This document shows positions 17,601 through 19,445 of a stretch of 21,210 nucleotides of DNA, piece after piece (within the stretch, counting starts at the first letter, position 1; every line of letters starts with the position of its first letter). The notes beneath the pieces are model-generated. The model ran no database searches. It was given only the letters and a program-made list of their open reading frames with translations, and was not told where the DNA came from. Both the position numbers and the translations under genes were made by a program. Origin of the DNA: a virus (Duplodnaviria; Heunggongvirae; Uroviricota; Caudoviricetes); the IMG/VR virus record IMGVR_UViG_2579778535_000007. One strand, 5' to 3'.

Positions 17601-19126
17601 TAGATGAGCATGCACAAGACATGCTTTATGACTTCGTTGCCGCCGGGCGCGTAGCCAGCGCAATGGATTCCGACTCCCATCGTAAAGAGGCGGCGCGTCG
17701 CCGGGTATTGTCGGAGTATTCAGATACCGGCACCGAAAAAGCAGAGAGGTATCCGTACTTTGAGGATATGGGCTTCGATAGTGTGATCGCCGACGAAGGC
17801 CACAACTACCGCAATAGCTATAAAAATGGTCGCGAAGCGTCACAGCTAGCCTATCTGCCCACCAGCGCGGTAGCGCAATCGGCGCGAGATATGGCAATCA
17901 AAAACGCGTACCTGATGAAAAAGAATGGCGGGCGCGGGCCGGTTCTCCTGACTGCAACGCCAGTCGTTAACACCCCGATCGATGCATACAACATGCTTTC
18001 TCATGTTCTGCCGAAGGAATACTGGCAGAAGATGGGGATCTACGGTCCTGATGACTTCGTTAAATTCTTCGGCAAGACCAGGCTGGAAACGGTACAGAAA
18101 ATCAGCGGTGAAGTTGAAGAAAAAATGGCGCTGGTGGGCTTTGAAAACCTTGATGCGCTGCGCGGTATATTCCATCGCTGGGTAACGCTTAAAACGGCGG
18201 AAGACGTTAAGGATACCGTGGAGATCCCGGAACTGGACGAACACCAGCAGGATGCACCACTTACGGAAGAACAACTGGCGGCGTATGAAGAATTGCGTCA
18301 GCAGGCGGAAGCGGCAGCAAAAGCCAACAATGGCGTAACGACCTCGGTCAATGAAGACGGCGTGATTGAGCACGAGAAAGCCCGTCCGATCTTCTCAATA
18401 ATCAGGGATATGGACCGCGTATGTACTGACATGGACCTGTACTATCGCCGGATTACCTATCGTTTCCTGCCGGAGTACGCCGATGCGGTGCAGCAGCTGG
18501 CGGACAGTTTGCCTAAACAAGCCACCAGCGAAGACGACGACAGTGATGATTCAATCTCGCAGCAATCGCAATACTCCCTGATAGATAAGGGCGAGTTTAT
18601 TCAGTTGCAGGTTCCGGAAGCGTTCGAGCAGGAAGTGAATAAGCGCCTGGCCAGGTTTGGCATTGACGAACAGACCGTAACTCACCCCGTTACGCCGAAA
18701 TACGCGAAGCTGATCGCCACGCTGAAGGAGTTTTTCCCGGAAGGTAAGCAAATCATCTTCACCGATGAAAAAACGCAGCACCAGAAGCTCAAGCGCATTA
18801 TCTGCAATGCTCTAAACCTTGAACCTTCAAAGGTGGGGATCCTGAATGCTCAGACGGTTGCCGAGGCAGGTAAAACCGGTAAGAAACTGAAAGCGGTTAA
18901 ACCGCCGAAAGAGCTACCGGATGAACCAACAGATGCACAGATAGCGAAATACAACGAGCAAATGGCTCTGTATGACGCCTATATCGCGCAGCAAAATGAA
19001 ATGTCGTTGGGCGGTCTGGAAAAGATTGCAGCCGACTTCCAGGAGGGCCGGACTCCGATCATCATCTGCAACAAAAAGGCAGAGGTGGGTATCAACCTGC
19101 ATCGAGGAACGACGGATACAGGGTGA
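14639..19126 (+). CDS. darB: DarB-like N6-adenine DNA methyltransferase–SNF2 helicase fusion (1495 aa), probably 3'-truncated
   Basis: Methyltransferase motif I LEPSAGTGVF (14987-15013) and motif IV variant GNVPFG (15173-15190). Helicase motif I GFGTGLGKTTTA (17205-17230), motif II VIADEGH (about 17788), SNF2-type motif III LTATPVVNTPIDAYNML, motif V KKAEVGINL. The ORF stops right after motif V; no motif VI was found. Confidence 0.7.
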   Translation: MNKLSMGVFRCSSVSEILKYIRAITSHRAPIRYGVEKVEGKSYDRLRREANQKAIDLLNSLVDGATLTDEQRQILAGYTGEGGIGGSVSEYYTPKPIAEGVWEIMKLYGADVGNTLEPSAGTGVFNETKPVGTVMTATEISSVSGRINQLLHPEDSVQISPFEQLAINTPNDSFDHVVGNVPFGGRDNTRNIDKPYAEETDMGSYFMLRMLDKIKPGGFMCVIVPPSIVSGSNMKRLRLRLSRKAEFLGAHRLPTGTFDANGTSTVVDVVLMRKHPAEMAEKIPLVDESTLESANVLWPTFISGKWFEKDGRRFVHGTQEKGFQGRIEVRADGQIDNQALKAKLIHRFESRIDWSLLDMAEPSPTADVVGEGEMRLINGVWQKYAGGRWIEADAGKELKIDAASYGADSWEALQRNLTTTEGRLGMTFTQMANVRDKYTTSISDDMVQLVDWINSQPEKYRERLYRGAMIGRMLIEYQDMKAAGHSAEQIEQQRLSLVSRLQAEIDRFGNPGRGPIAKLSGSGARAWFAFRGAIKLDGTISDELTGKLVTHDSSASYDSTSYQDTLRYLYSDLTRDSIQLDDFRLAFTGELPASDEELLNLLASTPGIAVSPYGGIVPFARATSGDINEIVAPKQEFLATLPDGPVKNNVLNQLAAIEEKRIKTPAENIRFKLNSRWFDRSVILEFLQENGYPDLRYVQSVQLEGDEMVSDTYHGGDGLFVGHRYGVVQRKDKETGEIRYEWDRKSGENATGFPAQLEKYLNGARIGGKDSATANGYREQMALLEDQFNKWIKTHDRYDELVAKYNDVFNSNIPYEHSGDPLGLKGLSGKRQPFDYQNSEVRRLSEDGRGILGFGTGLGKTTTALALEAFNYENGRSTRTAYVVPKSVLENWYYEAKEFLSEEAFSNYLFVGLDVLMDGDQIRQVPVLNENGKPVLGTDGTPVMRDALKLADEATITARMNAIPHSNYRAVVFTKEQYARIPLRDDTVDEHAQDMLYDFVAAGRVASAMDSDSHRKEAARRRVLSEYSDTGTEKAERYPYFEDMGFDSVIADEGHNYRNSYKNGREASQLAYLPTSAVAQSARDMAIKNAYLMKKNGGRGPVLLTATPVVNTPIDAYNMLSHVLPKEYWQKMGIYGPDDFVKFFGKTRLETVQKISGEVEEKMALVGFENLDALRGIFHRWVTLKTAEDVKDTVEIPELDEHQQDAPLTEEQLAAYEELRQQAEAAAKANNGVTTSVNEDGVIEHEKARPIFSIIRDMDRVCTDMDLYYRRITYRFLPEYADAVQQLADSLPKQATSEDDDSDDSISQQSQYSLIDKGEFIQLQVPEAFEQEVNKRLARFGIDEQTVTHPVTPKYAKLIATLKEFFPEGKQIIFTDEKTQHQKLKRIICNALNLEPSKVGILNAQTVAEAGKTGKKLKAVKPPKELPDEPTDAQIAKYNEQMALYDAYIAQQNEMSLGGLEKIAADFQEGRTPIIICNKKAEVGINLHRGTTDTG

Positions 19127-19417
19127 TGCCACCAGCATAGCTCAGTCTCTTGGTCTGAATTATCGCGTATCCACCGCCGACCTGAAGATGATGTACGCAC
19201 CAAAATTCGCCGCTGGCGAGGTATTTGGGCTTCAGGAAGCCTCCGGCATGAAAGGGGTTCTTTTCCGTGCGAAAGACGCAATCAAGGCGAAATTCGGCGC
19301 TCGATGGTTGCCAGCGAAGGCGAAGAACAGCGACTTCCCAGGTAACTGGTGGATTATCGAGACAAAACACAACGTGGCGGACGTTCTGGCCGTCATCCAA
19401 CAATACGCATAACAGGA

Positions 19418-19437
19418 GCGCCCGGTTCGCCGGGCGT
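19418..19437 (+). other. GC-rich hairpin with a UUCG tetraloop between the darB-like remnant and the next gene
   Basis: GCGCCCGG-TTCG-CCGGGCGT. No U-tract follows. Ends 9 nt before the ATG at 19446. Confidence 0.5.
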
Positions 19438-19445
19438 CGCATAAT

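Follow-up and report, generated by a model that had tools for sequence, protein, structure and literature searches.

An Internally Deleted darB Gene in a Defective P1-like Plasmid Prophage

The darB Reading Frame and Its Break

The DNA examined here, referred to as the window, is a stretch of 21,210 bp that makes up the complete contig AYQQ01000068.1 of a short-read NCBI draft assembly (GCA_000503395.1). It is 97–99% identical to the phages P1, P7, RCS47 and phi456, and hundreds of P1-like plasmids from Escherichia coli, E. fergusonii and Salmonella match it at the same level. Identity to P1 and P7 in particular is 98–99%. Our subject is its copy of darB, which encodes the antirestriction protein DarB. 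The gene occupies positions 14639..19126 of the plus strand as an open reading frame (ORF) of 1495 codons followed by TGA, whereas the reference proteins of P1 (YP_006479.1) and P7 (AAQ07489.1) are each 2255 residues long. Alignment to the P7 and P1 proteins shows that residues 1–1493 are native and that residues 1494–1495 (T and G) are read out of frame. Over the native part, the window protein differs from P7 DarB at 5 positions (1488 of 1493 residues identical) and from P1 DarB at 16; at the DNA level, the retained 5' part has 20 differences from P7 in 4,475 nucleotides. The gene also lies in the order prt–darB–ulx–lxc, the same as in P1 and P7. Sequence identity and gene order together identify it as a P1-type darB.

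The upstream side of the gene is undisturbed. The 75 nucleotides between prt and darB (14564..14638, plus strand), where a divergent late promoter, LPpro, is annotated in P7, are identical to P7 at all 75 positions, and neither this region nor the retained 4.5 kb of darB contains extra stops or further lesions. The break lies at the other end. Base-level alignment of the window to P7, P1 and phi456 reveals the same loss of 1,994 bp with each reference. With phi456, chosen as the nearest proxy for the parental left flank, homology on the left runs through 19118 and homology on the right begins at 19116; the junction is thus the trinucleotide ATA at 19116–19118 of the plus strand, a microhomology present in both parental flanks. 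BLAST searches of a phage collection divide the region in the same way, with 18000..19116/19118 matching darB of P1-group phages and 19116..20127 matching the 3' end of darB followed by ulx and lxc. Because 1,994 is a multiple of three plus two, the deletion shifts the reading frame, and translation stops at a premature TGA (19124–19126, plus strand) after two foreign residues. DarB residues 1494–2157, 664 in all, are deleted, and the remaining 98 residues (2158–2255) are out of frame.

These last 98 codons and the native TAA are still present at 19116..19412 on the plus strand. The remnant encodes a peptide identical to both P1 and P7 DarB at 97 of 98 residues, differs from P7 at 4 of 297 nucleotides, and remains open up to the TAA at 19410–19412, ending in ...NWWIIETKHNVADVLAVIQQYA. 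This open frame is the native C-terminus of DarB from 19116 onward and not a chance ORF. In public gene calls, the last 74 codons of the remnant (19188..19412; MMYAPKFAAG...QQYA) appear as an independent protein; this call is an annotation artefact of the darB pseudogene. Just past the remnant, in the native spacer between darB and ulx that aligns to P1 and P7, lies a hairpin (19418–19437, plus strand) with an 8-bp GC-rich stem and a UUCG loop. The 46-nucleotide stretch that surrounds it (19405–19450) folds at −18.1 kcal/mol. The hairpin was considered as a transcription terminator and rejected, as it has no T tail and a terminator scan does not call it.

The original prediction, made from the sequence alone, had described a darB-like ORF that ends nine codons past the tetrapeptide GINL, a next frame open to 19412, and a strong hairpin beyond it. 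All three descriptions hold: GINL is residues 1484–1487, the TGA is the ninth codon past it, and the remnant and hairpin are as given above. From a length of about 2255 residues for P1 DarB, which is accurate, the prediction had also proposed an internal deletion of roughly 2 kb with a change of frame. The alignments to P1, P7 and phi456 bear this out, and the two comparisons it had suggested, of the ORF with P1 DarB and of the remnant frame with the DarB C-terminus, give the missing residues 1494–2157 and the 98-residue remnant. A recoding event or programmed frameshift was also considered at the break. It was rejected, given that 664 residues, motif VI of the helicase among them, would be missing even with the frame restored.

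Domains Kept and Lost

In P7 DarB, Pfam models place N6_Mtase and Eco57I at residues 90–291, SNF2-rel_dom and ResIII from residue 833, and Helicase_C at residues 1455–1517. The window protein keeps all of these domains except Helicase_C. Its scores exceed the model cutoffs for N6_Mtase (35.4 bits; cutoff 20.4), Eco57I (32.5 bits; cutoff 25.3) and SNF2-rel_dom (PF00176; 44.1 bits; cutoff 24.9). Methyltransferase motifs I (AGTGVF, residue 120) and IV (NVPFG, residue 180) are intact, as are helicase motifs I (GTGLGKT), II (DEGH), III (TATP) and V (GINL). Residues 1–31 are identical to those of P7 and P1 DarB, and the first difference falls at residue 32; this stretch covers the N-terminal 30 residues that PMC9024508 describes as the capsid-targeting signal of DarB.

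The deletion starts six codons past motif V, between motifs V and VI. In superfamily 2 helicases, motif VI bears the arginine finger. In P7 DarB, it corresponds to the string QRNGRGAR, from residue 1508 onward, which does not occur in the window ORF. In a PDB sequence search, DarB aligns to the SNF2 core of the Rad54-like protein of Sulfolobus (SsoRad54, 1Z63), weakly (E = 1.4e-4) and in agreement with the Pfam result on Helicase_C. In this alignment, GINL of DarB falls on the motif V GINL of the archaeal protein and WTPASIAQRNGRGARVG of DarB on its motif VI segment, WNPAVEDQATDRVYRIG, which puts motif VI inside the deleted part and leaves the second RecA-like lobe incomplete. Like the Rad54-like SWI2/SNF2 ATPases, the window protein has a first lobe and motifs I, II, III and V; unlike them, it has no motif VI. 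The original prediction had labelled the gene an SNF2 helicase and argued that motif VI should follow motif V. Both the label and the argument are supported by Pfam, by the 1Z63 alignment and by the description of DarB as the archetype of a methyltransferase–SWI2/SNF2 dyad whose proposed action requires the ATPase (Iyer et al., PMC5512222). A permuted domain, with motif VI upstream of motif V, had been named as an observation that would speak against that argument; no upstream motif VI was found in the window ORF.

Beyond the helicase, the lost part of DarB resembles little that is catalogued. No Pfam family beyond Helicase_C covers the approximately 740 C-terminal residues that follow the helicase in full-length DarB, and a PDB sequence search with the 762 residues lost from the C-terminus gave insignificant matches only (best E = 0.031). 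Relative to P1 and P7 DarB, which have both, the window copy is without motif VI and without this uncharacterised C-terminal third. The predicted product would comprise the N-terminal capsid-targeting segment, the adenine-methyltransferase domain, the first RecA-like lobe and the second lobe as far as motif V, and would lack motif VI and about 760 C-terminal residues. Judged from these motifs, loss of motif VI would abolish ATP-driven translocation and hence the antirestriction function of DarB. The prediction that the methyltransferase part may persist is correct for the sequence, with AGTGVF and NVPFG in place; residual methyltransferase activity may accompany these motifs, although no evidence supports it. 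The window protein has neither a complete helicase core (motifs I to VI) nor the full length of about 2255 residues, and we therefore file the locus as a darB pseudogene rather than as a functional DarB.

Distribution and Origin of the Truncated Allele

The junction was sought as one continuous match, and it was found in none of 19 matching phage records, none of 671 plasmids in PLSDB and none of 683 records of complete E. coli genomes. A 31-mer that spans it has no exact match in IMG/VR or in the GTDB species genomes. The missing segment itself is common: of the P1-group phage records, the 18 with matches to both flanks all carry it, and among 641 matching plasmids, 564 contain 80% or more of it. 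The full-length gene is thus the norm and the short form is derived, as indicated by the 564 plasmids that carry the segment. In the 90%-identity cluster of DarB, which has 16,340 members, 9 of the 15 members listed are 2255 residues long. The 1495-residue sequence itself is recorded for this contig only, once from NCBI and once from a Logan assembly. The truncated allele is private to one strain.

The opposite polarity, in which P1 and P7 gained the 1,994 bp by insertion into an ancestral short form, or in which DarB orthologues naturally end at this point, derives its appeal from the bare length of the ORF. The original prediction had named such a natural end as the finding that would overturn it. 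In P1 and P7, however, the segment continues one open frame and encodes motif VI, and without it the frame is shifted and the 98 native C-terminal codons go unread. The continuity of the open frame, the Helicase_C domain that it completes, and the presence of the segment in 564 plasmids and all 18 phage records refute this alternative, to which we assign a practically negligible chance.

Although the window's junction is unique, disruption of the gene is not. About 16% of the matching PLSDB plasmids (107 of 671) do not carry at least 80% of the segment deleted here, and the 90%-identity cluster includes fragments that span residues 426–2255, 810–2255 and 960–2255, several of which may simply be cut by contig ends. 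Decay of darB is common among P1-like plasmids, yet none of these other disrupted alleles has the window's junction.

The structure of the junction bears on how the deletion arose. Its two ends share only the 3 nucleotides of ATA, which argues for illegitimate joining rather than homologous or site-specific recombination. Among the 60 nucleotides on either side of both breakpoints, the longest common word is 8 nucleotides and is out of register, leaving the 3-nucleotide overlap as the only homology at the junction. The deletion likely arose by microhomology-mediated illegitimate joining, through either replication slippage or end-joining. It would be a recent event, a view that fits the lack of further lesions in the retained part and the 75 identical positions upstream.

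A Chi site lies at 19129–19136 (CCACCAGC; GCTGGTGG on the minus strand), 11–13 nucleotides to the right of the darB junction, in the orientation that RecBCD would read on entering from within the deleted segment. Resection by RecBCD that ended at this site was considered as a source of the right end and set aside, since the other three deletion breakpoints of the window, two of which are described below, have no Chi nearby and such sites are frequent in P1. The proximity is probably a coincidence.

A Second Deletion and the State of the Prophage

The darB deletion is one of two in the window. Positions 1..12111 align to P1 51585..39823, and from 12108 on the match resumes at P1 19767 and runs downward through pro, prt and darB. 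The junction between these blocks, at 12108–12111 and 7 kb upstream of the darB deletion, is a TACC microhomology, and 20,059 bp of P1 (19768..39822 of the record) are missing there. Read from the P1 annotation, the lost genes are the 3' end of pro, lydE, lydD, lyz, ssb, isaA, IS1, isaB, hxr, ddrB, ddrA, darA, hdf, lydB, lydA, lydC, cin, the invertible C segment, U, S, R, gene 16 and the 3' part of bplA. Both genes at the edges are truncated and read through the junction. The head processing gene pro (12076..12861, minus strand) is left as an ORF of 261 residues, as compared to 339 in P1, and the baseplate gene bplA (11299..12198, plus strand) as one of 299 residues, as compared to 477, that continues into antisense pro. 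These two junction-crossing ORFs are recorded from this contig only, in NCBI and in Logan. This junction is also private, and the pair of deletions (1,994 bp and 20,059 bp) is in no record searched. An origin of the 20-kb junction by restriction and ligation was considered in view of the KpnI/Acc65I site (GGTACC) at 12105–12111. It was rejected, as the site is native to the left flank: P1 has it in its left flank, and the right flank of P1 has no such site.

Could either junction be a product of assembly? In that case darB would be intact, and the contig would join non-adjacent places by way of a chimeric read or a collapsed path. The window is indeed a contig of a short-read draft assembly, and it contains two junctions, each found in no other record. 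However, misassemblies arise at repeats, whereas the flanks here share only 3 and 4 nucleotides. The truncated DarB, the BplA read-through and the truncated Pro all recur in the Logan assembly, which was made with a different assembler, and intact and deleted copies occurring together would be expected to break the contig at the junction. An artefact of this kind is therefore highly improbable.

The 20-kb deletion changes the setting in which darB would act. Because lysis, tail-fibre and baseplate genes are missing, no virion can form. Furthermore, Hdf and DarA are required for the packaging of DarB, as stated in PMC12810830 with citation of Piya 2017. All four of hdf, darA, ddrA and ddrB lie inside the missing 20,059 bp, and ulx is retained downstream of darB. 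The element thus has the ulx component of a functional P1 Dar antirestriction system and is without its hdf, darA, ddrA and ddrB components. Their loss would leave DarB no longer loadable into heads, and loss of the helicase would have no further consequence, because the element has already lost about 20 kb that include the darA operon. With no virions formed, nothing would select for darB, and the gene would be free to decay neutrally. The element is a P1-like plasmid prophage that has become defective, and its darB would be unselected unless a second P1-like element elsewhere in the genome supplies the missing genes. It resembles other defective or cryptic P1-like plasmid prophages in that it keeps parts of the lytic-replication, immunity and morphogenesis modules, has lost lysis, tail-fibre and dar genes, and has IS26, here at the contig end.

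We consider it very likely that the window's darB is a pseudogene created by a single 1,994-bp deletion within a P1/P7-type darB, as part of neutral decay in a plasmid prophage locked in lysogeny. Four points weigh against this interpretation. The junction rests on two assemblies only, probably built from the same read set. The genome may harbour another P1-like element that is intact, or contain the 'deleted' DNA at a different place. The need for motif VI in DarB itself is presumed, and a functional test of DarB mutants in catalytic residues was confounded by an effect of plasmid DNA (PMC11109961). Finally, the retained part shows no further decay, which may reflect continued use of the truncated protein.

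The last point leads to a different account of the gene, in which the 1,493-residue fragment remains in use, for instance as an orphan adenine methyltransferase serving the resident plasmid. No damage is seen in methyltransferase motifs I and IV, in helicase motifs I to V or in the upstream region, and 4.5 kb have accumulated no secondary mutations. Yet the absence of secondary mutations is equally expected after a recent deletion, and across more than 1,300 matching records the allele occurs in a single strain, with no sign of spread or selection. Moreover, darB belongs to the late, virion-associated gene set according to PMC9024508, and its neighbourhood has a late promoter and a hypothetical C1 operator in the P1 and P7 annotation; little darB expression would therefore be expected in a lysogen. 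The same element also has another large inactivating deletion. Continued function of the fragment is thus very unlikely. Production of the truncated protein in a more specific role, either as a stand-alone methyltransferase for the resident plasmid or as a dominant-negative form or decoy acting on DarB of superinfecting P1-like phages, is conceivable but has, in our estimate, only a slim chance of being correct. These considerations leave deletion followed by neutral decay as the favoured explanation.

The window's darB is, then, an ordinary, strain-private, deletion-made pseudogene in a decaying P1-like prophage. Its significance extends little beyond annotation: the locus should be labelled a darB pseudogene instead of an 'N-6 DNA methylase' plus a 74-residue hypothetical protein, and the contig a defective P1-like plasmid prophage unable to form virions. 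It is a further instance of the darB decay that is common among P1-like plasmids, and its two junctions, with microhomologies of 3 and 4 nucleotides, are clean examples of illegitimate deletion. A natural allele that stops between SNF2 motifs V and VI could also serve as a model for a construct that asks whether antirestriction depends on the ATPase of DarB.

The genes around the two deletions are otherwise well preserved. The first block of the window (1..12111) contains repL, kilA, ant, icd, two membrane-protein genes, tube genes, sit, pmgA and the 5' part of bplA, all intact as far as bplA. Next to darB and divergent from it, the portal gene prt/proA (12854..14563, minus strand; P1/P7 annotation) encodes an intact protein of 569 residues. 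Downstream, ulx (19446..19886, plus strand; 146 residues), which lies under a match to the annotated ulx/olxA of P1 and P7, and lxc (19883..20131, plus strand; 82 residues) are both intact. A table in PMC9024508 lists ulx as helping DarB localise to the capsid.

Past lxc, the window departs from the phage order. A gene for an AraC-family regulator (20170–20871, minus strand) stands in place of the type III mod/res genes that follow lxc in P1 and P7; its top NCBIfam model is YdeO, at 151 bits and under the model cutoff of 348. In related plasmids, genes for EAL-domain proteins are annotated beneath the match to window positions 20100–21210. At its end (21149–21210), the contig runs into the terminal inverted repeat of IS26 (GGCACTGTTGCAAA...); here IS26 either is carried by the P1-like element or interrupts it. 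This short stretch accounts for the matches of the window to over 5,000 plasmids from many genera.

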